Below are positions 19,272 to 35,600 of a DNA stretch of 64,000 nucleotides, piece by piece; position 1 is the stretch's first letter; each line of letters starts with the position of its first letter. Location: the NCBI GenBank assembly GCA_965603365.1, contig CBFDCR010000008.1:24531-88530 (forward strand), written 5' to 3'. The position numbers and the translations under genes were made by a program. Origin of the DNA: an uncultured bacterium. GTDB taxonomy: Bacteria > Acidobacteriota > Aminicenantia > UBA2199. A model generated the notes under the pieces. It worked only from the letters and a program-made list of their open reading frames with translations. It had not been told where the DNA came from and made no database searches.

Positions 19272-20999
19272 CTAAAACAAAGCAATGAGCGTCCCAATCA
19301 AAGCAATTATCGTCCCCACGATCCATTTCCAATTCTTTTTCAGGCCATAAGCGAAATTAACTTTTACATATATTTCTCTATCCATCACAGGGTAGCTCTT
19401 TACTTTTTCGCCATATTTATCAAGATATACTATCACTGAAATTGAAGGACAAATAACTCTTTTCCCGGATCTTAACGGTGTAATTTCCCACTCCCATTGA
19501 GTATACCCACTGGAGGCAATCAACTGTTTTTTTTCACTGAGAGGCTCAATTTTAAAGTCATCCACAGATAACTCCGCTTTCATTGTAGTACTTATTTTTA
19601 GTTTTTCTATCTTTGGTATTCCCCTTCCTTTCAACCCCTTAGTTAGATCCTCCTTCAAATCTTTTGAAATACGAACTTCCACTCTTTCAGTTTCCCCCAC
19701 CCGCATCTCTTCTGGAGGATTAAATAGGATCTGGCCTATTTCTAACTGATTCAGTTCATCATCAATGATCTTGTGTGCGTCAATTTTCATTCCCCCTGAT
19801 TTTACTTTCAGATATTCCCAAATTCCCGCGTTGCTTGCAAGGGTATCAACATCGACATCCATTGAAGTATCACGGCTTCGATGCTCATCATTTTTGATCT
19901 CAGTATTGATTGCTATTTCCTCCCCAATTATCACTCCTCCTCCAACCTTTCCTATTTTCACTTTCATTTTACTTCCTTTTTTTTCAGAACTGTTAGATTC
20001 GTTTTCATCATCTCCATTTTTTCTTATCAGTTTTACTGAAACCTGTCCGTCTTTGCATTTGTTGAGGGCTCTGTCGAATTCATGGCGGTCGTCAAAGTAG
20101 GTTCGCAGATATATGGTACCTTCGGCTTTTTGGACATCAAGTTGAAAGGCCGAATATCCAATATAATAAGATCTGCCTTTGTATAGACAGCCGCTCTGGA
20201 TCAATAGGGTTTGGTTGCCGAAGTTCTGGACCAGTTCCAGGTTGGGGTCGTGGAGGTGGCCACAGAAGATGAGATCGAATTCCCGGTAGAGCATTTTTTT
20301 GGCATCGCCGAGATCATATTCGCTGAGCCAGTCTAAGGCGTGATGAAACAGGGCAATCTTAATATTACAATCCTTGATGTCCTGGAAGGCATCATAAATC
20401 TGGCGTTCGCCGATTAAAAGTTTGCCGTTATCATAGCCGTCGGCTTTGCCGGTGGCCCGCCAACTGGAGTTCAGGCAGGCGATGCCGATTTTGGCGGAGT
20501 TTTTTTGGAGTATATGGGTGGAAAATAATTTGTTGGAAGTGATCGTGTGCGTTGAGTGAAATTGACTTTTAAAGGCGTTGAAGTGGTCCAATCTTTCGAT
20601 ATGGGGAAAATCTTTTTCGATCTCTTTGTCTAAGAAAGCATTCAGGGTCTCACGGTCGATCAGTGCCGTTCTTAGACCCTCTTCGGTGATGGAGTCGATT
20701 GCTTTCATCTGCATGTCGTGGTTGCCGGGGACGATGAAAAATTCGTTCCTGGTCAGCTTCGTTTTTTGCAATAGGGGATCGATAAAGACTTCGTAAGCTC
20801 TTTTAAAATCGTCTTCTTTGTCTCCTGCTTTGACCAGATCGCCGGTGAAGAGGATGAAGTCGATGTCCGGGAAGTGGTCCAGGTCTTTCCACAGGGCATT
20901 TAAGACGATTTCGGTGTCTTTGGGTTTTGAACTGTCGTAGTGCAAATCGGATAAGTGAAGCATATTTATAACGTCTAAATTGTTAGCTTCCTTTGCCAT
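19272..20999 (-). CDS. Calcineurin-like metallophosphoesterase (copy A) fused to a beta-rich domain and C-terminal TM helix
   Basis: LHLSDLH, TGDLV, PGNHD, LFHH, CGHLH motifs; C-terminal WKWIVGTIIALIGTLIALF; GAGGTG SD. Confidence 0.88.
   Translation of the reverse strand: MAKEANNLDVINMLHLSDLHYDSSKPKDTEIVLNALWKDLDHFPDIDFILFTGDLVKAGDKEDDFKRAYEVFIDPLLQKTKLTRNEFFIVPGNHDMQMKAIDSITEEGLRTALIDRETLNAFLDKEIEKDFPHIERLDHFNAFKSQFHSTHTITSNKLFSTHILQKNSAKIGIACLNSSWRATGKADGYDNGKLLIGERQIYDAFQDIKDCNIKIALFHHALDWLSEYDLGDAKKMLYREFDLIFCGHLHDPNLELVQNFGNQTLLIQSGCLYKGRSYYIGYSAFQLDVQKAEGTIYLRTYFDDRHEFDRALNKCKDGQVSVKLIRKNGDDENESNSSEKKGSKMKVKIGKVGGGVIIGEEIAINTEIKNDEHRSRDTSMDVDVDTLASNAGIWEYLKVKSGGMKIDAHKIIDDELNQLEIGQILFNPPEEMRVGETERVEVRISKDLKEDLTKGLKGRGIPKIEKLKISTTMKAELSVDDFKIEPLSEKKQLIASSGYTQWEWEITPLRSGKRVICPSISVIVYLDKYGEKVKSYPVMDREIYVKVNFAYGLKKNWKWIVGTIIALIGTLIALF
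19851..20815. repeat. Direct repeat copy 1 (965 bp), matching 28008-28972
   Basis: Line-by-line comparison at offset 8157 showed one mismatch (19899 C vs 28056 T, synonymous Glu). About 150 bp further upstream stays alignable but has many substitutions. Confidence 0.93.
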
Positions 21000-21315: not shown

Positions 21316-23778
21316 TTAATTTATGTCGAGTATTTGTCTGGTCACATCGTCTACGAAGGCTTTGAGTTTTGCTTCTTTTTCTTCTCTTTTCTTTTTTTCC
21401 TCTTTTTCTTTCTCTTCGTCTTTTTCCTTCTTTTCCGGTACTTCCCATTGATTTATGGCGTCCCATAGTGTGCTTTGAAGATCTTCATCGCCAGTTCGAT
21501 AAAGTTCGACAATCAATTTCTTTAATTCATTATTCACCTTATTCTTTGAAAGATTGTCAATTACCCATTTTTCCAGATTGTTGAACAGAATTTTTTTCAA
21601 CTCTTTACGATCGCTTAGCTGGAACTTTGAAAAGCACTTTTCATATAAACCCTTTAAAAATTGAACCATTTTTTCGTTTGCTTTATCGCCCATAGTTAAT
21701 GAATTCAATAAGACATTGGAACTAAGGGAATTTTGATCTTCGTCAGATAGGTGAATTATCTTTCTACTCTCTAGCACCTGGAGGATTCCATCGGAACCCA
21801 GAAAGAACAGTACCACGATAATTTTAGTGTCTCTATTGCCCTCTTTGATCCAGTTGCTCAGTTCCGAAATAACATCGATAGGATTGATCATGATACACAA
21901 AGCCACTATCGAATATCGAACATTGGACAATAAATAATTGGTTTCTTTATACAACATATCCAGATCTTGTAGGACATCCTCTTCACTTGCCCCCCTTCTA
22001 TAAAGGATATCCAGAATATTCTCGGTCTTAAGCATTCTTTTAATTATTTCTTCCTGGATCTTTCTTAATTCTTTCATGGCAATTTTCAGATCGCGAAGCC
22101 CTATTTGTTTATAGGCAGAGATGGCTGTCCATTGAACCTTTATATTGTCACTGAGCGCCATGTTTTTCAAAAAGCCCATGCAAAAATTTTTATAATTTTC
22201 GTCTTCACTAGATAAAATTCCTTCAAATAGGTAGCCTACGTTTGCCCTAAAAAAAGATTCTTCCATATGTGCCCAGCCTCTGATAAAATGGAGGGCAATA
22301 GACTCAAGGTCGAGTTCACCTATCCTACCGATACTGTATGCGGCCAATCTCCGTAGATCCGGTTGATACGGATTCTCAACATATTCTTGTAGATAAGGAA
22401 TAAGAGTGATAAGTATTCTCCGATTGTTCTTGAAGAGGGTATTCAACAAGATTTTTTGATACATAGGATCACAGAATTCGATTACATCCGCAGAAATGAG
22501 TGTATCTCTTGTTACCTGGGCTTTACATTTCGCGAGCAGATCGCTTTCGGAAAGGGTGAAGGAGAATTCTTTATTGGGACTATAGGGAGTTATTGCTCTC
22601 AACAATTTTTTGGTGATTGCTTTATGGATTTGCTCGAAATCAAAATAAGGGACTCCGTTTATAAGAGCCAAAAATAAGGCAAATGTCCATGCCTCAAACT
22701 CTTTATTATTTTCCCCCAACTCTTTCAGGAACCAGTGCTCAACCCGTTTTTCAATACTGTTTACTTCCACGATAGCTTCATCTACCGTTTTCCCCCCTGC
22801 CAATATTTTTTCCAGATAGTTCTCAATAAACAGTGAAATCTTTGACATCCGATTAAATTTTTTAAGTATTTCAGGTAGCCTCTTTTTTAAGATGTCGGGG
22901 GCATTATTTGGATCTATTTGCCGTGAAGAGCAGAAATGTTCGAGTTTCAACTTAAAACCTTCTTTAATCAGATTATCATCGATTAGAGTCACTTCTGCCT
23001 TTATATCAAGACCGGAGACCTGGAATTCATCAAATGTATCATAATCGGCAGTAAACAAGATATATGCGTCCAGTTCCTTGAGCTTCTCTGAAAAAAATTT
23101 TGTCTGCTCCCTGGTATAAGAGGCAAAAAAATCTTGAAGCTTCAGATTGTTTCCTGAAAAGACATCCTTGAATATCAAAATTTTATTAGCCAAAACTTTA
23201 GGGTCATTGATTAAATCAAAAAGGTCAATAATTAATTCTTTAGCAACGGGCTTAACCAGTCGTACCTCATAATCTTTTTTATTTTCTTTCATGATCCGAG
23301 TTGAGAGGTACTTCGCCATAAAACATTTACCCGATTCCGGTTCTCCCACCAGGAGCAAAATCCTATTTAAGATAAGGGAAGCAAACAATTCATCGATTTT
23401 GTCAGGAGGATAGACAAAAGTCTGATAAATCTCTTCAAGAGAGTCCCCCGATATCCGAATCGTATTCGAGATCGAGAATTTTTTTATGCAAAAATTTACA
23501 CCATCTACTCCCCCTATTGCAGTTATATTATTAATATTATTTTTTGTTTCATAATTGATCTGTTGCGCTATAGTTGTATCTCTTCCTACTTGTCCGACGC
23601 CTACATCAAAGCCTGATTGACTCGATTGTTTTTCATCTCCGGCTGAACTAACCGTATCGGTCTTCTCTGTTTCTTTCGCCTCAGACGATTGTCGCGGCGG
23701 TTCAACTCTTTCTTCCTGGACATCCGGGTCACAACTTTCTGGATTTTCGGTGCCTTGTTTATCTTGCTCTTTTGACAT
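21316..23778 (-). CDS. P-loop NTPase (STAND/NLR-like) with disordered N-terminus and C-terminal ARM/HEAT-like repeats
   Basis: Walker A LLVGEPESGKC and Walker B-like ILIFKD. Helical repeats such as RRLAAYSIGRIGE, RANVGYLF and VQWTAISAYKQIG. Charged tail. Confidence 0.7.
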   Translation of the reverse strand: MSKEQDKQGTENPESCDPDVQEERVEPPRQSSEAKETEKTDTVSSAGDEKQSSQSGFDVGVGQVGRDTTIAQQINYETKNNINNITAIGGVDGVNFCIKKFSISNTIRISGDSLEEIYQTFVYPPDKIDELFASLILNRILLLVGEPESGKCFMAKYLSTRIMKENKKDYEVRLVKPVAKELIIDLFDLINDPKVLANKILIFKDVFSGNNLKLQDFFASYTREQTKFFSEKLKELDAYILFTADYDTFDEFQVSGLDIKAEVTLIDDNLIKEGFKLKLEHFCSSRQIDPNNAPDILKKRLPEILKKFNRMSKISLFIENYLEKILAGGKTVDEAIVEVNSIEKRVEHWFLKELGENNKEFEAWTFALFLALINGVPYFDFEQIHKAITKKLLRAITPYSPNKEFSFTLSESDLLAKCKAQVTRDTLISADVIEFCDPMYQKILLNTLFKNNRRILITLIPYLQEYVENPYQPDLRRLAAYSIGRIGELDLESIALHFIRGWAHMEESFFRANVGYLFEGILSSEDENYKNFCMGFLKNMALSDNIKVQWTAISAYKQIGLRDLKIAMKELRKIQEEIIKRMLKTENILDILYRRGASEEDVLQDLDMLYKETNYLLSNVRYSIVALCIMINPIDVISELSNWIKEGNRDTKIIVVLFFLGSDGILQVLESRKIIHLSDEDQNSLSSNVLLNSLTMGDKANEKMVQFLKGLYEKCFSKFQLSDRKELKKILFNNLEKWVIDNLSKNKVNNELKKLIVELYRTGDEDLQSTLWDAINQWEVPEKKEKDEEKEKEEKKKREEKEAKLKAFVDDVTRQILDIN

Positions 23779-23796
23779 CTTAGATCCCTCCCTATT

Positions 23797-25005
23797 TTAC
23801 TGTGCAGCTTCGAATTCGGTTTTGACATCTTCTAGTATCGTTCTAAATCTTTTAATTCGTTCTATGCGATCTAGAGTAAAAATTTTTCGATGTTCCACTG
23901 TGTACCTTTCCAGTCGCTTAAGTTGCTGCTCAATCACTTCGAAATCTGCTTTTTCCTCACGATATGTTTCACCCATAATCTGAGTTACAATGGCGAGCAT
24001 TTCCCTTTTATCTTCATTGTTGCATCCAGAGTTTCTAATATCGTTCATAATTCCCATAAGAATCTTTCTAAGATCCCCCGAAGATCCTGATTCGCCGATA
24101 TCCAAATTCTTTTGCATTTCATCAACTATTGGAATACTTCGAGGATTGCCCAGGTTTTGGGGGGTGGAGAAATGCTCCCGCACCACTCCCATAAAAGCAT
24201 CCATAGATTTTGTAAATTTTTCAGGATTATCAACATTTTTAGCCAGTTGTTCTACGGCAACGGGGAATTGTTCGTATGTTTTATTTATCGCTTCTGAGGC
24301 ACTCTCCATTCTCTTAAGCATCAACTCATGAGCTTTGGCTTCTAACTCTTCTTCTCTTTTTGCCTTTGCCTTCTCTTTATTTAAGGCATCTAGCGCCTTT
24401 TCGACATCATGCTTATCGCCCGCCTTGTCCAACTCCAGGTCGCCTTCTGAAAGGGTATGGTGCATGACAATCTTTTCAATACTTATTCCATAGTTATCTG
24501 CAATGTGTCGAATACTTTTTAAAGATTTCTCAGACAAAATGATATCTTCGATTTCGTCGAAACGGGATTTCACATCATCGATTGTAATCTTGCTCTTCTT
24601 GATATTGACCCTGAACTGACTCTCCATTTCATTCCAGATGAGTCGCAGGGGATCATCCCGAAACCGGACAGCTAAGGGTCCTGGATTGGATACCTGGAAG
24701 TAGACTCTACAACTAAGGGTAAAATTCTTGTGCTGGGTCGGTAACATAAAGGTGGAACTTCTATCAAAGCTGAGGTTGGGATTGGCATTTACCGCATAGG
24801 CAACATAATTGCGGTTTAGAGAGAGAAACCCGGTTTTTATGGGTTTGCCATCCTCACCTTTTGACGGCTTACCGTCCTCATTTAGAATTTTATAAAGGGT
24901 CTTTGAGTCCTTTTTTTCCTTAAAAATAACAACTCTATAACCCTGCCTCGGTACAGGGGCGACATTGGGTTTTAAAACCCCAAAAGATTCGGTTAAATTT
25001 TCCAT
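23797..25005 (-). CDS. SPFH/band-7-like protein with coiled coil, no TM
   Basis: FTLSCRVYFQVSNP, DDPLRLIW and NYGISIEKIV match the SPFH core; followed by an Ala/Glu/Lys coiled coil. Confidence 0.6.
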   Translation of the reverse strand: MENLTESFGVLKPNVAPVPRQGYRVVIFKEKKDSKTLYKILNEDGKPSKGEDGKPIKTGFLSLNRNYVAYAVNANPNLSFDRSSTFMLPTQHKNFTLSCRVYFQVSNPGPLAVRFRDDPLRLIWNEMESQFRVNIKKSKITIDDVKSRFDEIEDIILSEKSLKSIRHIADNYGISIEKIVMHHTLSEGDLELDKAGDKHDVEKALDALNKEKAKAKREEELEAKAHELMLKRMESASEAINKTYEQFPVAVEQLAKNVDNPEKFTKSMDAFMGVVREHFSTPQNLGNPRSIPIVDEMQKNLDIGESGSSGDLRKILMGIMNDIRNSGCNNEDKREMLAIVTQIMGETYREEKADFEVIEQQLKRLERYTVEHRKIFTLDRIERIKRFRTILEDVKTEFEAAQ

Positions 25006-25006
25006 T

Positions 25007-25990
25007 TTACTTCTCCTTATTTTTGTTCTTTCTTGCTATATCTTCAATTATTTTTTTAATTTGACTGGCGATGTCTTTTAAATGATTTAATTTAACCTTG
25101 AGATCTATTTTAAGTAATTGTTTCGCCGCGTGGTCCCAATAGTTAACATATTTTTTGTCTATTTCGGGAAAATGACCTTTACCTCTCGACTTTGTATTTT
25201 GCGAGGATTGAGTGGTTTCCCTTGACACAAAGAAAAACAAATTTCTATCGCTGATCTGGAGTTCAAATTCCTCAAGCAACCTTTCGGCCAGGGTCAGGTA
25301 ATAACTATCGATCAAGCTTTTGAGCTTGTCTATCATGGAAAAGTCTGTATTTTTGTCCCTCTCCTCAGCATGGAATTTTACAGCGTGTATTTGTTCCAGA
25401 ACATTCGCCAGTTTCTCTACCTTTTTTTTCAATTGCTCAAACTTTACGGTATCCATCTCTCGATGGAATAATTTTTCTATTTCCTGGCGGCAGATGAATA
25501 AGTTCAACTCTGCCTTATGGGTTTGTCTTTTTTCGAGATATCCCCGACTGCTTTCCTGCAAATCGGCGATTACTTTTTGGGTTGTTGTATCAACAAATAG
25601 AGGTGCCCCGGTAAGCTCGTTCAGTTCATCAATCAATTCTTGTACTGCGTCATACCGCTTGATCATCGGTAAAGTCATTTCCAAATCTTTGATGATGATT
25701 TCCGCTTCCCTGATTTTTTTTACTGCTTTTTTGAATTCTACCCTTTCGACGTTTCGCAGTATCTCACCAAGGATATCGTCAAAACGGATCAATTCCTGGA
25801 GGCGAAAACGGCGTAAACACTCCCTCTCGCCGCTAAATTGAGCAGATCGGGTGGACAGGTTATCGATTTCTTGAGTCAACAGGTATGATACCCGGCTATC
25901 GTTATACCAGCCGTTTTGCCAGCGCCACAAAGTTTTTTCAAGGATAAAATCGGTTTTACTTCTAGAATGTCTGTGCTGCCGATTCATCAT
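25007..25990 (-). CDS. Hypothetical alpha-helical protein
   Basis: 327-aa ORF overlapping the MotB-like gene by 29 bp; ends 1 bp before the SPFH gene start. Confidence 0.75.
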   Translation of the reverse strand: MMNRQHRHSRSKTDFILEKTLWRWQNGWYNDSRVSYLLTQEIDNLSTRSAQFSGERECLRRFRLQELIRFDDILGEILRNVERVEFKKAVKKIREAEIIIKDLEMTLPMIKRYDAVQELIDELNELTGAPLFVDTTTQKVIADLQESSRGYLEKRQTHKAELNLFICRQEIEKLFHREMDTVKFEQLKKKVEKLANVLEQIHAVKFHAEERDKNTDFSMIDKLKSLIDSYYLTLAERLLEEFELQISDRNLFFFVSRETTQSSQNTKSRGKGHFPEIDKKYVNYWDHAAKQLLKIDLKVKLNHLKDIASQIKKIIEDIARKNKNKEK

Positions 25991-26678
25991 GGTTCTCTTT
26001 CATCTCTTTTTCGAGATCACTGAAATATACCACCCGGATCTCGATTCGTCGATTCAATGCCCTACCTTCTGTTGTGTCATTCGATGCTACAGGCTTTTGG
26101 TCGGCATAGCCATTGGCCGAGAAAAGACTACTTTCCAGATGAACAAATTCTTCTTCAATAAACCAATGGAAAAACTTCACCACATTGATGGCCCTTTGGG
26201 CGGACAGTTCCCAATTGGAGGCAAACTCCTCTCTCAGGCGACCGGAAATCTGCACATTGTCGGTATGACCTTCCACCTGGATTTGTTTGAATTTTGCCTT
26301 TTCTTCAGCCCAATCAAAAATGAGTATCAGGCTGGCAAGCAGATGTTTGCCGCGTTTTAAGAGTTTTGCATCTCCCGATTTAAACAGTATTTCGCTGCTG
26401 AAGGTAATCTGCTGCAAATTGCCGTGTGTTACGATTTTGATTGTTCCCTCTTTTATTTCAGCCGCGAATGCCCGGGTAAGTTCTTCAACGAATTCTTCCT
26501 GGCAGGATCTCACCCGCAGCATCTCAAACGCTTCGGTATTTAAAATGAGCCTCAAGAAGGCAATGAGAAAAAATATCATCAAAATTGAAACAAACACATC
26601 GATAAATCCAGGCCAGAAATTTACGCCTCTGTCTGGAGAAGACGTATTGGTCTTATCTTTTATAAATTCCATCAGCAT
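25962..26678 (-). CDS. MotB/ZorB-like protein (TM with conserved Asp plus OmpA-like peptidoglycan-binding domain)
   Basis: FWPGFIDVFVSILMIFF TM; IQVEGHTD, NWELSAQRA and NRRIEI OmpA motifs. Confidence 0.88.
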   Translation of the reverse strand: MLMEFIKDKTNTSSPDRGVNFWPGFIDVFVSILMIFFLIAFLRLILNTEAFEMLRVRSCQEEFVEELTRAFAAEIKEGTIKIVTHGNLQQITFSSEILFKSGDAKLLKRGKHLLASLILIFDWAEEKAKFKQIQVEGHTDNVQISGRLREEFASNWELSAQRAINVVKFFHWFIEEEFVHLESSLFSANGYADQKPVASNDTTEGRALNRRIEIRVVYFSDLEKEMKENHDESAAQTF

Positions 26679-27943
26679 CCTACCAATAAGATAATCAAAA
26701 AAATAATCGCCAATGCTGCGGTGGCGGCGATGTATTTATTATTAAATAAGGAACTCAAGGAGGGTACAATTACTACCAATCCCTTTTCCTTGATTCTCAT
26801 GATCCGGTTGACCTCTTTAGAAAAGGTCTCCTGCTGCTTTCTCATCACGTCTATAAGGGAATTGATTTCCTCTTTCGCTACTTTACCCTGTCCTTTCATA
26901 GCTTCTACCATCTTCGGCCACTGATCCACGATGCCTATAATCGATTCATTGGTCTTTTTGAGCAGCGTGAGCACCCCTTCAAAATTTCGCGATGCTTCTC
27001 TCTTGGTGATATCCCGTACTTCATCCACGATGGTCTTAAAAGAGCCTTGAATGGTACTTAAATTTTCGATAGTATCCTTGTTCTGGGTTATAATGAACTC
27101 TAAGTTATCGAATGAATCTTGGAGATGTATAGCAATATTCTCCAGGGGATGCTCGCTCTGGACAGGCGGAACTGTTACCGGGATTAACTTTTCAACGGTG
27201 AAGTTCTCCAGTTTATGCAAGAAAGCGGTTTGGTTCCGCTGAATACGAAAGTTCAGATATATACATATTATGGTGGTTAATATTCCCACGATACTGGTGG
27301 AAAAGGCGGTTTTTATTCCCTGAAAAACGGTTTCCATGTTGGCGATTGAAGACTTTAAACCGGAAATAGAAAATGTGAGAGCATTGGGGTTGGGCAGCAG
27401 CATACTGATTTTCGTAACCATAAAGGCCAGGCCGATAAAGGTGCCAAATAGACCCAATATCATGGCCAAATCCCTGGAGAATCCCGGAAGAGTAACCCCC
27501 AGCCTCGATGCTTCAGAAGTCAGGGCATCTTGTTGTAGAAAGTCGGCACTAATTTTGACCCGGTATTTTCGCAATCTCTCAATGGTGTCCAGCCTTTTAT
27601 AGATAATACTCTTTCGCGTCACTCCTTCCTGGAGGTCTCTAATATTCATCAACAGGTCAGGGATCTCCTCTTTTCTTCCATCCTCCTTCGCTTCTTCGGT
27701 ATTGACGGATTCTAATGGTGCTCTCAGACGGGAAAGTTTTTCATCGACTTTACGCTCTACCTTTTTTAGTGTACGTTTCTCACGCTTTCTATACCGCTTG
27801 ATCGTGTGCCGACTGACCAATAAGGTGACAAATAACAGAAGAAAAATCACCGAGTTAATGGCAATGCAAAACTCGTTGGGGAACAGAAATTGCCGTAAAT
27901 CATTTAAAATGGGCAGAATGAAAGTTATTATCTCGTTTTCCAT
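26672..27943 (-). CDS. MotA/TolQ/ExbB (ZorA-like) channel protein with helical tail and extra C-terminal hydrophobic helix
   Basis: TM1, then ILGLFGTFIGL and GIKTAFSTSIVG motifs. Start at ATG 27943 after GGAGAGG, 1 bp after the MPE stop. Confidence 0.85.
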   Translation of the reverse strand: MENEIITFILPILNDLRQFLFPNEFCIAINSVIFLLLFVTLLVSRHTIKRYRKREKRTLKKVERKVDEKLSRLRAPLESVNTEEAKEDGRKEEIPDLLMNIRDLQEGVTRKSIIYKRLDTIERLRKYRVKISADFLQQDALTSEASRLGVTLPGFSRDLAMILGLFGTFIGLAFMVTKISMLLPNPNALTFSISGLKSSIANMETVFQGIKTAFSTSIVGILTTIICIYLNFRIQRNQTAFLHKLENFTVEKLIPVTVPPVQSEHPLENIAIHLQDSFDNLEFIITQNKDTIENLSTIQGSFKTIVDEVRDITKREASRNFEGVLTLLKKTNESIIGIVDQWPKMVEAMKGQGKVAKEEINSLIDVMRKQQETFSKEVNRIMRIKEKGLVVIVPSLSSLFNNKYIAATAALAIIFLIILLVGC

Positions 27944-27944
27944 T

Positions 27945-29156
27945 TTACCTCTCCAATTTTTTTTTGATATATCCCCCAACCTCTACTTCTTCACCAACAG
28001 TGCCGATATCGACATCCATTGAAGTATCACGGCTTCGATGCTCATCATTTTTGATTTCAGTATTGATTGCTATTTCCTCCCCAATTATCACTCCTCCTCC
28101 AACCTTTCCTATTTTCACTTTCATTTTACTTCCTTTTTTTTCAGAACTGTTAGATTCGTTTTCATCATCTCCATTTTTTCTTATCAGTTTTACTGAAACC
28201 TGTCCGTCTTTGCATTTGTTGAGGGCTCTGTCGAATTCATGGCGGTCGTCAAAGTAGGTTCGCAGATATATGGTACCTTCGGCTTTTTGGACATCAAGTT
28301 GAAAGGCCGAATATCCAATATAATAAGATCTGCCTTTGTATAGACAGCCGCTCTGGATCAATAGGGTTTGGTTGCCGAAGTTCTGGACCAGTTCCAGGTT
28401 GGGGTCGTGGAGGTGGCCACAGAAGATGAGATCGAATTCCCGGTAGAGCATTTTTTTGGCATCGCCGAGATCATATTCGCTGAGCCAGTCTAAGGCGTGA
28501 TGAAACAGGGCAATCTTAATATTACAATCCTTGATGTCCTGGAAGGCATCATAAATCTGGCGTTCGCCGATTAAAAGTTTGCCGTTATCATAGCCGTCGG
28601 CTTTGCCGGTGGCCCGCCAACTGGAGTTCAGGCAGGCGATGCCGATTTTGGCGGAGTTTTTTTGGAGTATATGGGTGGAAAATAATTTGTTGGAAGTGAT
28701 CGTGTGCGTTGAGTGAAATTGACTTTTAAAGGCGTTGAAGTGGTCCAATCTTTCGATATGGGGAAAATCTTTTTCGATCTCTTTGTCTAAGAAAGCATTC
28801 AGGGTCTCACGGTCGATCAGTGCCGTTCTTAGACCCTCTTCGGTGATGGAGTCGATTGCTTTCATCTGCATGTCGTGGTTGCCGGGGACGATGAAAAATT
28901 CGTTCCTGGTCAGCTTCGTTTTTTGCAATAGGGGATCGATAAAGACTTCGTAAGCTCTTTTAAAATCGTCTTTTTTGTCTCCAATTTTTACCAGGTCGCC
29001 GGTGAAGAGGATGAGGTCGATGTTTGGGAAGTGGTCCAGGTCTTTCCACAGGGCATCTAAGACGATTTGGGTGTCTTTGGGTTTTGAACTGTCGTAGTGG
29101 AGATCGGAGAGGTGGAGAATGTTTATCTCCGATGTTTTGGTCTTATTATCTGTCAT
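27945..29156 (-). CDS. Calcineurin-like metallophosphoesterase (copy B) with C-terminal two-repeat Gly/Val/Ile motif
   Basis: Same five MPE motifs as copy A; AGGAGG SD; last 59 aa contain two 18-aa pseudo-repeats. Confidence 0.88.
   Translation of the reverse strand: MTDNKTKTSEINILHLSDLHYDSSKPKDTQIVLDALWKDLDHFPNIDLILFTGDLVKIGDKKDDFKRAYEVFIDPLLQKTKLTRNEFFIVPGNHDMQMKAIDSITEEGLRTALIDRETLNAFLDKEIEKDFPHIERLDHFNAFKSQFHSTHTITSNKLFSTHILQKNSAKIGIACLNSSWRATGKADGYDNGKLLIGERQIYDAFQDIKDCNIKIALFHHALDWLSEYDLGDAKKMLYREFDLIFCGHLHDPNLELVQNFGNQTLLIQSGCLYKGRSYYIGYSAFQLDVQKAEGTIYLRTYFDDRHEFDRALNKCKDGQVSVKLIRKNGDDENESNSSEKKGSKMKVKIGKVGGGVIIGEEIAINTEIKNDEHRSRDTSMDVDIGTVGEEVEVGGYIKKKLER
28008..28972. repeat. Direct repeat copy 2 (965 bp), matching 19851-20815
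   Basis: See copy 1. Confidence 0.93.
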
Positions 29157-29285: not shown

Positions 29286-31451
29286 TTATTTGTCTATTGT
29301 TTGTTGGATTTCATCGAGCAGGGGGGCTACTTTGTCTTCGGCTGAGACTTCCCGGGCTTTGGTCTGGATGAGGGTGTACATTTTGGTGACGGTGGCTTTG
29401 GGGGTTTCGGGGGCGAAGTTGCGGAGGATCTTGGCGAGGCGAACGACTTCGGCGGGGCTCATGACTGTTTTTTCGTTTACGATTTCGCTGGTTTTCCGGA
29501 AGTTGGGCTGCTTTTTGAAGAAGCGCTGGCTCTCCCGTTTGGCGGCGATCAGGTCGTAGTGGGGTTTGAGGACCGGGTTGTTGACGGCGGCGGCGATGAT
29601 CTCGTTGCCCTTTTCCAGGTGCTCGCCGCCGATGGCTAAGGCCAGGATGGTGTCGGGGTTGGAGAAGATCCTGAGGGCGGCCCTGGCGTGGTCGTCGTCT
29701 TTGGGCGGGGTGACCATCAGGCCGGCGCTGCCGGCAATCCTGATTTGGACCCCTTCGAAGTCCCAGCGGAGCTCCAGCAGGACGCGGTAGTAGCCGGAGG
29801 TGGGAAACAGGGGGCCTTCGGTGCCCCACAGCAGGGTGACCGAATGGCTGAGGAAGTCGGCCGGCTGGAGTTCCTGGGGCATGACATCGCGGGTGTAGCG
29901 GATGATGGTGGCAAAATCCTGGGCAGAACCCAGGGGATCTATTACCCGGCCGGACACGTGACCGGTCTTCATGCTGAGGCTGCCGGGCACCAGTCTGGGT
30001 TTATCGGAGCGGTTGGTAAGGGTGAAATTGATGCGCACCGGTGCGCCGATGGGTACGATTTCGTGCAGCGGCGAGACGCGGAGTTCCAGGCCCTCGGCCT
30101 CCACCACCTCGTCCCGGACATTGACCGGCAGGCGGTCGTGGGGAGTGCCGAAGGAGACGCCGCCGGGACGGATGGCGATATCCGGCAGGTGACAGAGCAG
30201 CCGGATATCCCTGGGGGAGAAGGACCACTCGACATTGTGGGGAAACCGCTGCGGCGGTGCGGCGTTGTGGGCGATCTGGACCGTCTTCTGCATGATGTAG
30301 TTTTCGTAGGGGTTGTCGGGATGGTAGAGCATCATGGCGTGGCCGATCTCGTGGATGGCGGTGCGGATGTAGGGGATCTGGCATTCGCCAAAAGGTTTTT
30401 GTTTGCACTCGCCCCAGCACGCCTCATCGGGAAAGACCACCTGAGAGGCGATGGCTGCACCCTCACGGGGGATGTCGTTGACGCCGCTGATGGTGTTGTC
30501 GTACATGACGCCGAAGGCCTCGTCGTCCAATTTGCGCACCGCCAGGAGATGGTAGTGCCACTGCTTATCCAGGTCGACGGTCTCCCGGTATTTTAACATC
30601 TTCTGGTGCAGCTCGGCATTGGACCAACTGTAATCTTCTGGTTCTTCCACGTCGTCATTGCTGATATTGACGCTGACCTGCCAGCCGGCCCCATGAAAGA
30701 CCGCTTCCCAATGGCCCTGGTGTTTATCGTAAGGAGAGTTGGCCGCCGGGACCCGGTCGATCTCGATCACCGCCTGGCGCAGGTAGGGGGAGATGCGGAC
30801 CATCATCAGTTGTCCCAGCACGATACCGGAGCCGGTCTGGATGTCGCCGCGCCAGTAGTGGATGCCGTCGGGGCCGGTGGAAAATTTGACGGCGGCGCTC
30901 AGGGGATCGCCCCGACCCCAGGTACGGCGGGCATAATCGAACCGGTAGGGTTCCATCTCCAGTACGATACTCTCACCCCCCCCGGGTTCCTGGCACAGGC
31001 GGGTGACCCGCAGGTAGTAGGCGTACTGCTGGCGGGGAAATACGGGGATATCGTGGTGGCGGTCATCCTGGTCTGAGAAAGAGGGGCAAAAGGTGGGGGA
31101 CTGGCAAAAGTCCTTTTTGTAAAGGTCGCCGCTGGCCATCATGGCGGCTCCGCTGCGCTGGATGCGCAGGCTGCCTTCGTATTGAAACCGGGCAGGGGTA
31201 TGCAGCGAGGTGGGGATTAGGCGGATGTAGTAGCAGCCGCCGGGCAATACTTTCGGCTGCGAAGCCCTGGCGGAATCCTGGGTCGATTGATCCGGCGGCG
31301 GCATGTCCAGCGGCTCGGGCAGGGGCGGCAGTCCGCTGTCGCTGCCGCGGATCTTCCGTTCGCCGCTGGCCGTTAACACATCATGATAATTTTGATTGGC
31401 CGACTCTGTCGACTCACCGGTACAACCGTTTAAACACTGTTCGTCTTCCAT
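29286..31451 (-). CDS. Metzincin-like zinc metallopeptidase domain protein
   Basis: HEIGHAMMLYH (HExxHxxxxxH) and downstream NYIM Met-turn; no signal peptide; AGGAGG SD. Confidence 0.7.
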   Translation of the reverse strand: MEDEQCLNGCTGESTESANQNYHDVLTASGERKIRGSDSGLPPLPEPLDMPPPDQSTQDSARASQPKVLPGGCYYIRLIPTSLHTPARFQYEGSLRIQRSGAAMMASGDLYKKDFCQSPTFCPSFSDQDDRHHDIPVFPRQQYAYYLRVTRLCQEPGGGESIVLEMEPYRFDYARRTWGRGDPLSAAVKFSTGPDGIHYWRGDIQTGSGIVLGQLMMVRISPYLRQAVIEIDRVPAANSPYDKHQGHWEAVFHGAGWQVSVNISNDDVEEPEDYSWSNAELHQKMLKYRETVDLDKQWHYHLLAVRKLDDEAFGVMYDNTISGVNDIPREGAAIASQVVFPDEACWGECKQKPFGECQIPYIRTAIHEIGHAMMLYHPDNPYENYIMQKTVQIAHNAAPPQRFPHNVEWSFSPRDIRLLCHLPDIAIRPGGVSFGTPHDRLPVNVRDEVVEAEGLELRVSPLHEIVPIGAPVRINFTLTNRSDKPRLVPGSLSMKTGHVSGRVIDPLGSAQDFATIIRYTRDVMPQELQPADFLSHSVTLLWGTEGPLFPTSGYYRVLLELRWDFEGVQIRIAGSAGLMVTPPKDDDHARAALRIFSNPDTILALAIGGEHLEKGNEIIAAAVNNPVLKPHYDLIAAKRESQRFFKKQPNFRKTSEIVNEKTVMSPAEVVRLAKILRNFAPETPKATVTKMYTLIQTKAREVSAEDKVAPLLDEIQQTIDK

Positions 31452-31466
31452 TTTTAAAACCTCCTG

Positions 31467-31937
31467 TTATGTTTCCCCGGGTGATTGGGCCGGCCATTGG
31501 TCGTCATCGGCAACGGTAATATAGTCTTCGGTTCTGGGGCGGATGAAGGGGGACTGACTGGGGATGGTCATCTTGAGTTCCCAGGTGGGCGGGCCCGGCG
31601 GGATGCGCAGGAGTGTGCGCCCGCCCTGGTGGAGGAGGGTGGCTTCGCCGATCAGGGAGAAGCGGAAATCCAGGAAAGCGGGCAGATCCAGGACGCAGTA
31701 ATGCCGCAGGTGACCGGGACCGCTCACCACCGAGATGTGCAGGTAATCGTCTGCCTCCGCCGGTTTGATGCCGCGGGTGAGGGAACTGTTGGAACTGATA
31801 ATGTGGGCGCTGCGGTTGGCGTGATGGTAGACATTGATATCCCGCTTCTCCTTGACCAGTCGGTTCTGCACGGTGATATCGATGGCTGCCGCTGCCGATG
31901 GTTTGACCATGGTTTCATCTCCCGGGAATTCGTTCAT
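31467..31937 (-). CDS. Hypothetical protein, paralog of 31960-32415
   Basis: Shares LPxxxDFxFS and RTLLRIPPGPPTWELKM motifs with the neighbouring gene. Confidence 0.7.
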   Translation of the reverse strand: MNEFPGDETMVKPSAAAAIDITVQNRLVKEKRDINVYHHANRSAHIISSNSSLTRGIKPAEADDYLHISVVSGPGHLRHYCVLDLPAFLDFRFSLIGEATLLHQGGRTLLRIPPGPPTWELKMTIPSQSPFIRPRTEDYITVADDDQWPAQSPGET

Positions 31938-31959
31938 TTTTCATCCACGCTGTCCTCTT

Positions 31960-32415
31960 TCAGGTGTCCTGTTTCTGGATAACGATTTCCCTCCTGGCAG
32001 TCTGGACCCGGCGGGCAATCTCCTGGGTATCCTTGTCCAGATCGCGATTTTCCTTTACCAGCCAATCGGCAAATTGAACGGCATATTTACTGAATCTGTC
32101 GCCGCTCTCATCCTCGCCGGCGGATACCGGGTTGCCGGTGGGATCGGTAGGCGAAGGACCCGGCGAATTCATGACCTTTAATTTCCATTGGGGGGCGGAG
32201 GGCGGCACCTTGATAATGGTCCGGGTATCCCGAATCTCTATAGAAGAGATCGGTATCCCTTTACCGTTTTCCGTTACCGAAGAGAGCTGCAGATCGCATG
32301 ACAGCGGCAGGGTGACTTTGAACTTGCCGGTGTCGAGATCATCCAGGATGATTTCCAGGGGATCGCTCCCCACCCCTCTTTCGTCGATTACCACATTTCC
32401 CTTTTGTTCAGACAT
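31960..32415 (-). CDS. Hypothetical protein, paralog of 31467-31937
   Basis: LPLSCDLQLS and RTIIKVPPSAPQWKLKV; GGAGG SD. Confidence 0.7.
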   Translation of the reverse strand: MSEQKGNVVIDERGVGSDPLEIILDDLDTGKFKVTLPLSCDLQLSSVTENGKGIPISSIEIRDTRTIIKVPPSAPQWKLKVMNSPGPSPTDPTGNPVSAGEDESGDRFSKYAVQFADWLVKENRDLDKDTQEIARRVQTARREIVIQKQDT

Positions 32416-32480
32416 TTGTTACCTCCATTGTTAATTTTTTTAACCGTTTTCCATGTTTCCATGTCCCACGATCTGGCGCT

Positions 32481-32546
32481 ATTGTAGCGGAAGCGGAGGC
32501 GGGGAATCTATCACATATGATAAAAATACTATAAAAATGGATAAAA
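32481..32546 (-). promoter_or_regulatory. Putative activator-dependent promoter with TTTTATC direct repeats 21 bp apart
   Basis: GATAAAA at 32519-32525 and 32540-32546 (+ strand); minus-strand -10 TACAAT at 32481-32486; poor -35. Confidence 0.45.
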
Positions 32547-32583
32547 TTTCAGAAGTTTAAGAATCCGGGACTTATTTCCCCAA

Positions 32584-32615
32584 TCATTCCATTATTCCAA
32601 CATTCCAATATTCCA
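32584..32615. repeat. 4 x 8-bp repeat (NNATTCCA)
   Basis: ATTCCA at 32586, 32594, 32602 and 32610. Confidence 0.7.
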
Positions 32616-32622
32616 GGCCTTG

Positions 32623-35600
32623 CTATATCGTTGCCTTTCCCAGGTAGACGGAGGGGAGTCGGTGAAACTTTTCCCGGAAACACCTGGTAAAGTAGGCGGA
32701 GCTGGAGAAACCCACTTCAAAGGCCACGTCGGTGACGGTGCCGAAGTTGGCTTCCAGCAACCTTACCGCCCGTTTGAGGCGGTAGGAGCGGATAAAATCG
32801 GTGGCGGTCTCGCCGGAGAGGGCCAGGATCTTCTTGTTCAGGGTGACCCGGCTGATGTCCATCTTCTCACTTAAGGCCTCCACGTTGAGATCGGGATCGG
32901 ACAACTCTTTTTCTATGATTTTATGCAATTGTTTCAGGAAGCGCTGGTCGATGGAGGAGATCTTGATCTCTTCGGGCTGCAGCAGCATCTGCCGCTGGAT
33001 CTTCTCCTGCAGTTGGCGGCGCAGGTCGATGAGATTTTTGATACGGCTGAGCAATAGCCTGGTATTGAAGGGTTTGGTGATGTAATCGTCGGCCCCGGTC
33101 TCTAAGCCCTGGATCTGGCTGCCCTGGGAGGCTTTGGCGGTGAGCAGGATGATGGGGATGTGGCTGGTCTTAAAATCGGTCTTGAGTGTCCGGCACAGTT
33201 CGTAACCGTCGACTTCGGGCATCATGATGTCGCTGACGATGAGATCCGGCATGGCCTCGAGGGCCTGATGAATTCCGGCGCGGCCGTCTTCGGCCTCCAC
33301 CACGGTGTAGCGGGATTCGATGGACTCGCGGATGAACCGGCGCATCTGGGGGTTGTCCTCCACCACCAGCACGGTGGGGCGGCCGGTATCCTGACGGCTC
33401 TCCCCACATTCGCCGGGGATCTCTTCTTCAAGCACGGCTCCCGCCTGTATTCGTTCGTAGCCCCCGGTTCCAGGGGATTCTGCGGCGATGTCGTCGGGCT
33501 GGAGGTGGGCTTTTCCCAGGGGAAAGCGGAGGATAAATTCGCTGCCGCTGTCTTCGCCGCCCTCCTTGCTGTGGACGTCTATCTTGCCGTGATGGAGGGC
33601 CACCAGTTCCCGGGTCAGGGCCAGGCCGATGCCGCTGCCGCTTCTCTTGTGTTTCCGCCGGTAAGACTCATGGGACTCTACCTGGTAGAAGCGGTCGAAA
33701 ATATGGGCCAACTGTTCTTTGGCAATGCCGATGCCGGTATCCCGCACCGAAATTTCCAGTGAGCCGGCGGGAAAGTCCTCTCCCGGCTCCATGACCTGTT
33801 TGACCGAAACGACGATGTCTCCCCCGTCGGGGGTAAATTTGACGGCATTGGAAAGGAGATTGCCGAATATTTCTTCCATCTTTTCGGCATCGAAGTAGAG
33901 GGTAATGGGCTCGGCCGGGCCCTGGAATCTCAGGTTCAGTCCACTTTGCCGGGCCAGGTGCTCGAAGGAAGAGAGGATGCCTCTTAAAAAAGAGACAATA
34001 TCCTGGGGCGCGGCGGTAAGCTTCATCTTGCCGCTGTCGATGCGGGAGAGATCCAGCAGCCGGTTGATGAGGGTGAGCAGGCGGTGGGCGTTTTGGTGCA
34101 TAAGGTCGAGCCTGTTTTTGGTCTCCTCCGGTAGATGACCGGAGAGCAGGCGCTCCAGTGGGCCGATGATCAGGGTTAAGGGGGTGCGGAACTCATGGGA
34201 GATGTTGGCGAAGAACCGGGACTTGGCATGATCCAGTTCTTTCAATTTTTCCGCCTGGTCTATAAGCAGGCGGGTCTGTTTTTCCAGTTTTTGGTTCTTT
34301 TCATGGATCTCCCGGGCCCGTTCTTTGACCACCTGTTCCAGTTTTTGTTTTTCCAGTTTCAGCTTCATGGAGCGCCACCTGACCGATAAGAACACGGTCA
34401 GGAAGAACAGCAGTACATAGAGCACAAAGGCCCACCAGGTGAGATACCAGGGGGGACGGACTTTGAAGCGGAATATTGCTTCGCGGCTTAGAAGGCCGTA
34501 CACGTTGCGGGCCGATACCCGGAAGGTGTAGGTACCGGCGTCCAGGTTGGTGTAGTCCACCTGGTTGGCCCGCTGCCAGTCGGACCAGTGGCGGTCGTAG
34601 CCCTCCAGGAGACAGCGGTACCGGGTCCGGCTCTCGTCCTCGAAAAAGGGGGCGGCGAACTCGAAGCGAAGGTTCCTGTTTTTATAGTCAAACACCGGCA
34701 GGGGATGTGAAGCTGCCGGGGCAATACGGAAGTCGTGAAATTGAGGGGCACCGTTTACCGATACCCGCCGGATGACGGCATAATACTCCTGTTCATAATC
34801 TTTGGTTACACCCGGGCTGTAACGGATTAATCCCTCATGACTGGCAAACCAGGTCACCTTATCCAGGGGGTCGGGGTAGATGTCATTGACCTGGGCACTG
34901 ACAGGAATCCGGGCCAGTGGTTTCTCCTCTACGGCATAGGTGTGGTTTGGTTGAAGGACGGCCCGGTAATTCTGGCCGTTGGCATGAAGCCAGATGGAAC
35001 GCTGCCGGTCTTCCCTGACCCGGAAGACCTTGCGCAAACCGCCGGAGAACTCCTTGCCCAGGGTGTCGTCCGCTGTCATCGTGTCTTTCTCGTCGTCGTA
35101 ACGAAACACCCCGTTGGCGGTGGCAAACATCACATGCCCACCGGCCCAACAAACCTGTATCTCACCGGGGGGAAGTTTTTGGGCGGCACCGTACCGGGTA
35201 ATACGGTAATCCGAAGTATTGCCGATGCCGGCAAAATCGACTTTAATCACCCCCGAGGGCAGGACCCCCAGCCACAGACGCCCCTGCCGGTCTTCGGCGA
35301 TGGAGCGAACTTGCTGGTCTACCTCTTTATATTGATACTCTACCGGCCAGCGAATCTCAGCCCGATTGGGATCTCGATACAGCGCGATGAGGGTATCCCG
35401 CATCCCCGCCCATATACGGTTTGGGTCTTGCCTGGAGCGGTGCAAAACGAGGGCGTGGATTCCGCTGATATCCCGGATGCTGCTGCCTTCGATCTGGAAA
35501 ATCCCGACATCGGTGGCAGCCAGCAGCGATTTATCGGTGGAGAGCAGAGACCAGCACGCACTGGCTATGCCGGCAACAGGCCTGAATTTATCCTCCGCTG

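Follow-up and report, generated by a model that had tools for sequence, protein, structure and literature searches.

A short tag shared by a P-loop NTPase and a calcineurin-like phosphoesterase suggests amyloid-type coupling within a ZorAB-like bacterial operon

In the HET-S/NWD2 system of fungi, the NOD-like receptor (NLR) carries one repeat at its N-terminus, and the effector ends in two loop-separated repeats, which form two β-solenoid rungs per molecule. Here, we describe a six-gene operon from an uncultivated sediment bacterium, in which an 18-residue tag is shared between the N-terminal region of a receptor-like P-loop NTPase and the C-terminus of a calcineurin-like metallophosphoesterase (MPE), termed MPE-B; the operon lies within a stretch of 64,000 nucleotides of contig CBFDCR010000008.1, hereafter called the window. 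Amyloid templating as a switch is established in fungal NLRs; among bacteria, it is established for the Bell/NLR pairs of filamentous species (10.1101/2020.01.06.895854) and for a single E. coli antiphage system (10.1101/2024.11.07.622273). Bacterial amyloid signaling sequence (BASS) motifs were first described in filamentous Actinobacteria and Cyanobacteria, with fibrils and prions shown experimentally for BASS1 and BASS3, and 57% of the collinear pairs reported by Dyrka et al. 2020 are ≤10 bp apart, the pairing window of that study being 5 kb. The Bab/Agp system showed that amyloid motifs function in unicellular bacteria as well (10.1101/2024.11.07.622273), and BASS11 also occurs with CHAT, TIR, EAD7, NACHT, and NB-ARC proteins (Ibarlosa et al. 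2024, 10.1101/2024.11.07.622273). Furthermore, calcineurin-like phosphoesterases, caspase/CHAT proteases, and trypsin are known as effectors of STAND conflict systems (PMC7159879, PMC8195603).

The tag found in the window very probably represents a shared homotypic adaptor that couples this NTPase family to its effectors. Translation of the minus strand returned the three 18-aa (amino acid) peptides exactly as the initial annotation had listed them, namely R1 and R2 on MPE-B and R0 on the NTPase (Table 1). Since the receptor holds one copy and the effector two, the layout was likened to HET-s/NWD2 and BASS signaling, a proposal already made in that annotation and upheld here. The tag is rich in Gly, Val, and Ile, with alternating hydrophobic residues and Gly turns. 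On the effectors, the spacing of the two repeats is constant at 35 residues; within the five modules that were aligned, the core of the R1-linker-R2 alignment is gap-free, N28 is invariant, and the linker is constant in length and conserved in its first half (IA-I/V-NTE-I/F-K). Because the similarity extends some residues beyond position 18 (IAQQINYETKN compared with IGEEIAINTEIKN), the unit of the tag is nearer to 25 aa. The assignment of R0 to the N-terminus of the NTPase has to be refined: it does lie in the N-terminal region, but not at the extreme end, as approximately 56 acidic, disordered residues precede it.

An 18-position pattern that describes the peptides occurs at only 4 sites in the six frames of the 5.3-Mb genome, i.e., at R0, R1, R2, and the first repeat of MPE-A, a paralog of MPE-B. 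Because this pattern was defined after the peptides had been seen, three independent tests were run. When aa 1-100 or aa 55-100 of the NTPase were shuffled, the observed ungapped score was reached in 0.08-0.2% of trials against R1 and in 0.02-0.1% against R2, while none of 5000 shuffles matched both scores jointly, so that the claimed similarity holds against shuffled G/V/I-rich controls (P ≤ 0.002 each). In-register permutation of the 18 residues of R0 gave the observed score in 0 of 50000 trials, and when the 60 C-terminal residues of MPE-B were aligned locally, with gaps, to aa 1-250 of the NTPase, R2 was paired with R0 (P = 0.0015). Moreover, an effector-side profile was built from the repeats of other loci only, containing neither window nor NTPase sequences. 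Searched against the six-frame translation of the genome (4.4 million residues), its top three domains were MPE-B R1, MPE-A R1, and NTPase R0. For a profile of the NTPase-side motif, the MPE repeats were not among the top 14 genome matches.

Table 1. Tag elements and genes of the operon, with positions counted from the first nucleotide of the window
Feature	Position	Strand	Details
R1, first effector-side copy, MKVKIGKVGGGVIIGEEI	28071..28124	minus	MPE-B aa 345-362
Linker, 17 aa, AINTEIKNDEHRSRDTS	28020..28070	minus	between R1 and R2
R2, second effector-side copy, MDVDIGTVGEEVEVGGYI	27966..28019	minus	MPE-B aa 380-397, six residues ahead of the stop codon
R0, sole receptor-side copy, FDVGVGQVGRDTTIAQQI	23557..23610	minus	NTPase aa 57-74
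MPE-B	27945..29156	minus	403-aa calcineurin-like metallophosphoesterase, effector; catalytic domain ~aa 11-325, tail aa 326-403
ZorA/MotA-like membrane protein	26672..27943	minus	~423 aa; PADLOC ZorA best 2.1e-5; Pfam MotA_ExbB 0.0047
ZorB/MotB-like protein with OmpA-type peptidoglycan-binding domain	25962..26678	minus	PADLOC ZorB 3.5e-28; Pfam OmpA 2.5e-12
327-aa helical protein, operon-conserved	25007..25990	minus	46% identity to the L005 314-aa protein
402-aa 'MENLT...' protein, directly upstream of the NTPase	23797..25005	minus	homolog adjacency
820-aa P-loop NTPase, receptor-like	21316..23778	minus	weak nSTAND3 match, AlphaFold2 layout
MPE-A, 575-aa paralog of MPE-B, past a gap after the NTPase gene	19272..20999	minus	sequence comparison

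The presence of the motif on both partners recurs in homologous operons, in agreement with the initial reading, and three complete syntenic operons were found in this state: that of the window, that of L005+L003, and that of L065. In L005+L003, the MPE copies are MTVNIGKISGKTNVGETI and FDLKIGEVNGPVNAGKHI, and the NTPase copy is QKIDIEKIEGDTDIAQVI; the end of L005 and the start of L003 are contigs of Joint Genome Institute (JGI) sample 3300082323 that share a stretch of approximately 33 residues of the 402-aa homolog, and the NTPase gene is closely followed by a TIR-domain gene on the opposite strand. The L065 contig begins inside the upstream gene, the last repeat of which is visible and ends ...LDIKVNTIKGDAVIAELIKTRSES, and the NTPase of this locus carries FKSDVNNISGNATIAQQI. 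In addition, MPE homologs of approximately 400 aa (P0025, P0028, P0031, P0032) end in two copies with 35-residue spacing.

The two-repeat module is also found on a second class of effectors adjoining the NTPase family, which is paired with module-bearing CHAT proteases in 4 more loci (L001, L002, L066, and P0134). The R1-loop-R2 module is N-terminal to CHAT in 3 of these (L002, L066, and P0134), and both L002 and L066 show the order 402-aa homolog, NTPase, and CHAT with N-terminal module; no recognized ZorAB-like pair was found within the stretch read for the CHAT loci L002, L066, and L014. L001 forms one contig with L004 and encodes several tagged proteins, including an NTPase with R0 and, in L004, an MPE bearing two copies. 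An 827-aa protein of this contig (L001:13795-16278) begins with a counterpart of residues 1-200 of the 402-aa protein (45% identity, E = 8e-52), followed by an internal R1-loop-R2 module and CHAT; this fusion physically links the 402-aa family to the tag system. Since BLASTP joins the tail of MPE-B (aa 323-402) to the L001 CHAT protein (aa 194-271; 42% identity, E = 7e-12), the module is portable between effector classes. Altogether, the tag is present on effectors in 7 loci. A search of 1.84 billion representative proteins with a profile of the module retrieved 6 at E ≤ 0.001, comprising 4 CHAT-type proteins or N-terminal CHAT fragments, 1 MPE, and 1 false positive of the Calx-beta repeat type, and tag profiles gave no additional copy in 47 MPE loci from named genomes.

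On the receptor side, AlphaFold2 predicts a disordered N-terminus (aa 1-98) for the NTPase, followed by the P-loop domain (approximately aa 100-290), a helical and winged-helix part, and C-terminal ARM/HEAT-like repeats; the mean predicted local distance difference test score (pLDDT) is 70, and that of the tag region 23-31. The only Pfam match is nSTAND3 (1.2e-4, under the cut-off), with neither NACHT nor NB-ARC above the cut-off, and a Foldseek search with the model returned NOD2, Cdc6/Orc1, TRIP13, AVAST5, importin-alpha, and PP2A-A at low TM-scores (approximately 0.2), which are generic AAA+/STAND and ARM-repeat kinds only. Owing to the weak nSTAND3 match and the low TM-scores, the NTPase is graded as STAND/AAA+-like in its predicted layout and not as a demonstrated NACHT or NB-ARC NLR. 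The Walker A residues G145, G150, and K151 are invariant, and a motif equivalent to R0 is kept in place in the homologs P0002-P0007 and P0010 (44-76% identity), examples being IDADIGLVGGDAEIAENI, VSADIKTVGRDAKVAQTM, SNYNIGSVGDNAEIAQEI, and, as above, FKSDVNNISGNATIAQQI. The family is rare, with 12 clusters among 5.8 billion proteins; an alignment-profile scan of one-genome-per-species contigs found no homolog, and 3 of 40 related genomes contain one.

On the effector side, the Pfam family Metallophos (E = 2.2e-16) bears out the earlier identification of MPE-B as a calcineurin-like phosphoesterase. MPE-B furthermore matches the PADLOC models 'Effector/Endonuclease' (2.5e-25) and PDC-S60 (E = 2.3e-65), with the latter match covering just positions 1-300 of the 1027-position profile. 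Its metal-binding residues D18, H20, D54, N93, H94, H219/H220, H248, and H250 are unchanged in five homologs, and by analogy the enzyme presumably acts as a nuclease or nucleotide phosphodiesterase. Its tail (aa 326-403) is predicted to be disordered (pLDDT approximately 27) in an AlphaFold2 model based on an alignment of five sequences only. The tag regions of MPE-B and the NTPase match no Pfam family and no PDB sequence even at E = 10. MPE-A is 98.3% identical to MPE-B at the nucleotide level over codons 11-383, and the two genes share a 1119-bp direct repeat (98.3% identity; 19851-20969 and 28008-29126) that flanks the ZorAB-like and NTPase genes. Because this repeat ends four codons into R2, MPE-A retains R1 (19914-19967) but shares only four residues of R2, then continuing into a different C-terminus, a β-rich domain ending in a transmembrane helix.

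The position of the module within MPE-B can be compared with that of other domains in its relatives. Distant MPE relatives carry EAD7 at the C-terminus (P0084) or bDLD1 at the N-terminus (P0109), and MPE homologs of 32-41% identity run on into a G-x4-GKT P-loop domain ('all-in-one' proteins), for which weak Pfam matches were obtained (NACHT, nSTAND_NTPase4, nSTAND2, AAA_16, ATPase_2). Because relatives have EAD7, bDLD1, or a fused P-loop NTPase, the site of R1-R2 corresponds to the adaptor position; in MPE-B and the NTPase themselves, the profile search gave no EAD or bDLD match. The division into tagged split pairs and all-in-one proteins that has been described for NLR systems with amyloid signaling is also found here. 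In L006, the 721-aa protein encoded in the gene block upstream of MPE is 94% identical to that of the window and the MPE domain 83% identical, while the MPE tail differs and the downstream genes, also different, encode proteins of 922 and 765 aa together with another MotA/OmpA pair. As this locus keeps the upstream genes but changes both the tail and the downstream genes, the MPE tail travels with its partner.

Several further sequences of a similar kind were seen. A Roco protein (LRR-Roc-COR; L001:6234-8543), encoded two genes upstream of the tagged NTPase, has a single C-terminal copy, FNVNIENIFGPATIGQQIKKEYRK. Other MPE tails end in ...Q-[VI]-x-I-x-x-[VL]-x-G-N-V-N, e.g., ...DCQIDKQVIIEKVDGNVNM (L017:672-4284, L018:7977-11659, L006:10001-13934), and resemble the N-termini of the 801-922-aa P-loop-less proteins encoded by the next gene, e.g., ...APINTQVIIQELTQ. 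Alignments within the own locus yielded P = 0.066 for L018, 0.105 for L017, and 0.126 for L006, a trial with longer segments gave P = 0.36 for L006, and the gene downstream of MPE in L016 is an unrelated one (P = 0.98); these tails are no more than suggestive of a second tag pair within the MPE effector family. In a related genome (L012:1965-5502), a 242-aa CHAT protein starts with MTSIHNTNTGNGNIAGLSAKGSITIIQGSQ, and the overlapping 951-aa gene has ...NNTDLHAGGDISIINQHY near its N-terminus, which may represent another, different tag pair.

Taken together, the tag is common to both partners, conserved on both, modular, predicted to be disordered, and located at the adaptor position of relatives. 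With moderate confidence, we favor an amyloid-type, HET-s/NWD2-like adaptor, in which the NTPase copy would template the two-copy module on separate effectors (MPE here, CHAT elsewhere); it is the layout and the composition of the tag that point to an amyloid or prion nature. If NWD2/HET-S and Bab/Agp serve as a guide, both the NTPase (aa 1-98) and MPE-B (aa 326-403) would have disordered tag regions at rest, and activation and oligomerization of the NTPase would juxtapose its R0 copies, which would then stack into a β-arch (cross-β) nucleus. This nucleus would template the R1-loop-R2 module of MPE-B, with two rungs per molecule, and the phosphoesterase, thereby concentrated or activated, would cause growth arrest or cell death. 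In the sister loci, the same NTPase family would drive CHAT proteases via the R1-loop-R2 module. The activating signal would probably be provided or gated at the envelope by the ZorA/ZorB-like proton-channel pair together with the 327-aa and 402-aa proteins.

A number of observations weigh against this interpretation. Several residues of the tag are charged (Lys, Glu, and Asp), and Pro occurs in some copies. Moreover, R0 is preceded by approximately 56 residues, unlike most BASS motifs, which lie within the first 30 residues. The R1-R2 loop is fixed in length and partly conserved, whereas the HET-s loop is variable, and the module could therefore instead be a small defined fold. The E-value of the effector-side profile for R0 by itself is weak (1.5), and the match of R0 to the effector repeats of its own locus is not significant, as 177 of 720 permutations across six loci reach the observed sum. 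Judged by its sequences, the tag acts as one cross-compatible family; a parallel change from G-x-V-G to N-x-I-x-G on both partners is seen only in the two closest operons, i.e., the window and L065, and is anecdotal. Furthermore, the AlphaFold2 model of MPE-B draws on just five sequences, the NTPase is weakly STAND-like (nSTAND3 below the cut-off, TM-scores of approximately 0.2), and in the three related genomes the N-terminal motifs of the NTPase homologs have diverged, with no clear matching tag on the CHAT or trypsin neighbors of these three.

Some of these points would fit a non-amyloid, stoichiometric adaptor, with R0 docking on or between R1 and R2 by β-strand addition to form a small defined hetero-oligomer in an EAD/Death-like manner. 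This alternative, which we regard as unlikely, is in line with the fixed length of the module and its partly conserved loop, with the globular EAD7 and bDLD1 adaptors that related MPEs have in this place, and with a tag family that is cross-compatible among loci instead of locus-specific. However, AlphaFold2 gives neither region a fold, Pfam and PDB matches are nil, and the tag matches amyloid signaling motifs in composition, length, hydrophobic alternation with Gly turns, and the one-to-two ratio of copies. Alternatively, the tag could be a short linear docking motif that connects the NTPase and the effectors not to one another but to a third component, such as the 402-aa protein or the ZorAB-like envelope complex. 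The one-versus-two copy asymmetry would then be left unexplained, the 402-aa and 327-aa proteins are devoid of a tag copy, and L002 and L066 keep the tag without a recognized ZorAB-like pair in the stretch read, which makes this possibility quite improbable even though the 402-aa protein is always found beside the NTPase, L001 fuses its N-domain to the R1-R2 module and CHAT, and the Roco GTPase of L001 also ends in one copy. Lastly, a chance likeness of G/V/I-rich low-complexity linkers, or a mere protease recognition site without adaptor role, might be thought of given the short motif, the weak profile E-values for R0 by itself, and the frequent protease neighbors, but is largely refuted and most improbable, as the shuffle tests reject chance, the position of the motif is kept in NTPase homologs (44-76% identity) and effectors in 7 loci, the MPE-CHAT module similarity is BLAST-significant, and the window operon is without a protease gene.

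The genes of the operon follow the order MPE, ZorA-like, ZorB-like, 327-aa, 402-aa, and NTPase, all on the minus strand, and the two tagged partners, MPE-B and the NTPase, are thus encoded on one strand and in one operon, approximately 4.2 kb apart with four genes between them. For the ZorA-like protein, the likely start is the ATG at 27943 (MENEIITF...) and not the TTG at 27979 given by the open reading frame finder. The ATG is preferred because homologs start there: the protein is 68% identical to the 416-aa protein of L005 from residue 13 on, and the L065 homolog begins with MEKEIITF. With this start, the overlap with the end of MPE-B disappears. The 327-aa protein has no significant Pfam or PADLOC match, and a protein of its size is encoded at the corresponding place in L065. 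The 402-aa protein is without a Pfam match, and its homologs adjoin the NTPase in L001, L002, L005/L003, L012, L014, L065, and L066; a tag scan found no copies in the 402-aa and 327-aa proteins. While no protease is encoded within the window operon itself, proteases are common as neighbors (CHAT, trypsin, and the metzincin-like 721-aa protein).

Upstream of MPE, the window contains genes for a hybrid sensor kinase, two small paralogous proteins, and the metzincin-like 721-aa protein (29286-36759). Synteny with a metagenome-assembled genome (MAG) of a Candidatus Aminicenantes bacterium extends over five genes (kinase, both small ones, 721-aa, and MPE), at identities of 35-62%. This conserved block, consisting of hybrid kinase, 151-aa, 156-aa, and 721-aa proteins and MPE, is complete in L005, L006, and L018 and partial in L016 and L017. 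Because the genes downstream of MPE differ between loci, the region behind the block looks like a variable defense slot.

Going one step further, the six-gene operon might constitute an undescribed defense system, in which an envelope-anchored proton-channel complex would sense a perturbation and relay it to the STAND-like NTPase, which would then fire MPE, or CHAT in the sister loci, through a new family of amyloid motifs templated in a prion-like manner; as a whole, this proposal is tentative and rather doubtful. If true, Zorya-type sensing would be joined to amyloid signaling in a lineage that is not known as multicellular. The amyloid reading of the tag would already extend this type of signaling to an enzymatic phosphoesterase effector, representing its first MPE pairing, and to a receptor family beyond NACHT and NB-ARC, would add a motif family outside the BASS1-10 catalog, and would place amyloid signaling both in an operon with a Zorya-like stator pair and in an uncultivated Aminicenantes-type lineage, beyond filamentous Actinobacteria and Cyanobacteria. 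As the module is rare, with five credible matches in 1.84 billion proteins, the finding bears on mechanism and not on prevalence. Nevertheless, one receptor family whose MPE, CHAT, and perhaps Roco partners have a portable 55-aa module in common would provide a natural test set, and the rules of tag-partner specificity are testable because a close relative keeps the MPE domain while its tail and downstream partners are exchanged.

With respect to known systems, the initial annotation had described the context of the operon as ZorAB-like, and the MotA/MotB-like pair indeed resembles that of Zorya, clearly for ZorB (E = 3.5e-28) and just at 2e-5 for ZorA. The ZorA-like protein is, however, short (approximately 423 aa), and its companions are MPE, the 327-aa and 402-aa proteins, and the STAND-like NTPase. 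PADLOC profiles of ZorC, D, E, F, and G gave no match in any of eight proteins, and the operon was not assigned to Zorya, as a type-defining partner (ZorC/D, ZorE, or ZorF/G) was not detected. NTP-dependent conflict systems (Kaur, Burroughs, Iyer, Aravind; PMC7159879, PMC8195603) similarly combine STAND-type NTPases with separate effectors via matching adaptors, and relatives of MPE-B carry EAD7 or bDLD1; their EAD/bDLD adaptors are globular and approximately 60-105 aa long, whereas the tag consists of a short repeat with predicted disorder. The Bab/Agp system of E. coli ECOR25 (BASS11; Ibarlosa et al. 2024, 10.1101/2024.11.07.622273) is alike in its adjacent effector and sensor genes, its common amyloid motif, and its link to defense.

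HET-s/NWD2 of Podospora anserina shares the layout of one versus two copies, the repeats here being 18-25 aa long with a 17-aa spacer. Unlike HET-s, the effector is an enzyme and not a pore-forming HeLo domain protein, the loop is constant in length and partly conserved, the genes stand in a bacterial operon, and the sequence is unrelated (no Pfam HET-s match); in a search for HET-s/HRAM membership, the MPE-B tail and the NTPase N-terminus matched no Pfam amyloid-motif family at E ≤ 10. The comparison with HET-s, RHIM, EAD, and Death-like families gave no Pfam match, and no clear membership in BASS1-10 emerged. For the latter, Table S2 of Dyrka et al. 2020 supplied the instances of BASS1-10. 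In hhalign, the tag aligned with BASS4 over a 10-column core, V-G-G-[DN]-h-x-I-[AG] (probability 37%, P = 3.6e-4), and with BASS1, 2, 3, 5, 6, 7, and 10 at P ≥ 0.04; the BASS4 profile (Q-x-[IV]-[LF]-x-N-V-x-V-G-G-N-[LI]-T-x-G-D-I-T-Q) scores R0, R1, and R2 at 1.4-3.5 bits. BASS4 thus appears to be the nearest cataloged family by a weak resemblance of 10 core residues, membership in BASS1-10 not being demonstrable. The locus does not represent the BASS4 system itself, which pairs a cyanobacterial Bell effector with an NB-ARC/NACHT receptor: the effector is of the Metallophos family, the receptor has no such match above the cut-off, and the nearest named relative of the locus is an Aminicenantes MAG.

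From the BASS1-10 systems in general (Dyrka et al. 2020, 10.1101/2020.01.06.895854), the locus differs in several respects. Four genes, including the ZorAB-like pair, separate the partners, a distance that still falls inside the 5-kb window of that study; R0 lies inside a long N-terminus predicted to be disordered; the receptor is not demonstrably of the NACHT/NB-ARC type; and the host appears to be of the Aminicenantes type instead of a filamentous actinobacterium or cyanobacterium. Calcineurin-like phosphoesterases are absent from the effector list of Dyrka et al. 2020 and from the effectors in Ibarlosa et al. 2024, in accordance with the earlier remark that this effector pairing was not recognized as a described one. 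The locus also shares features with the BASS1-10 systems: a G/V/I/N-rich motif of approximately 20-25 aa joins the terminus of an effector to the N-terminal region of an NTPase from the same operon, a two-copy pseudorepeat on the effector faces a single receptor copy, as in some BASS1 and BASS6 pairs, the effector domain is also found fused to an NTPase, and CHAT, the alternative effector of this NTPase family, is listed there as well.

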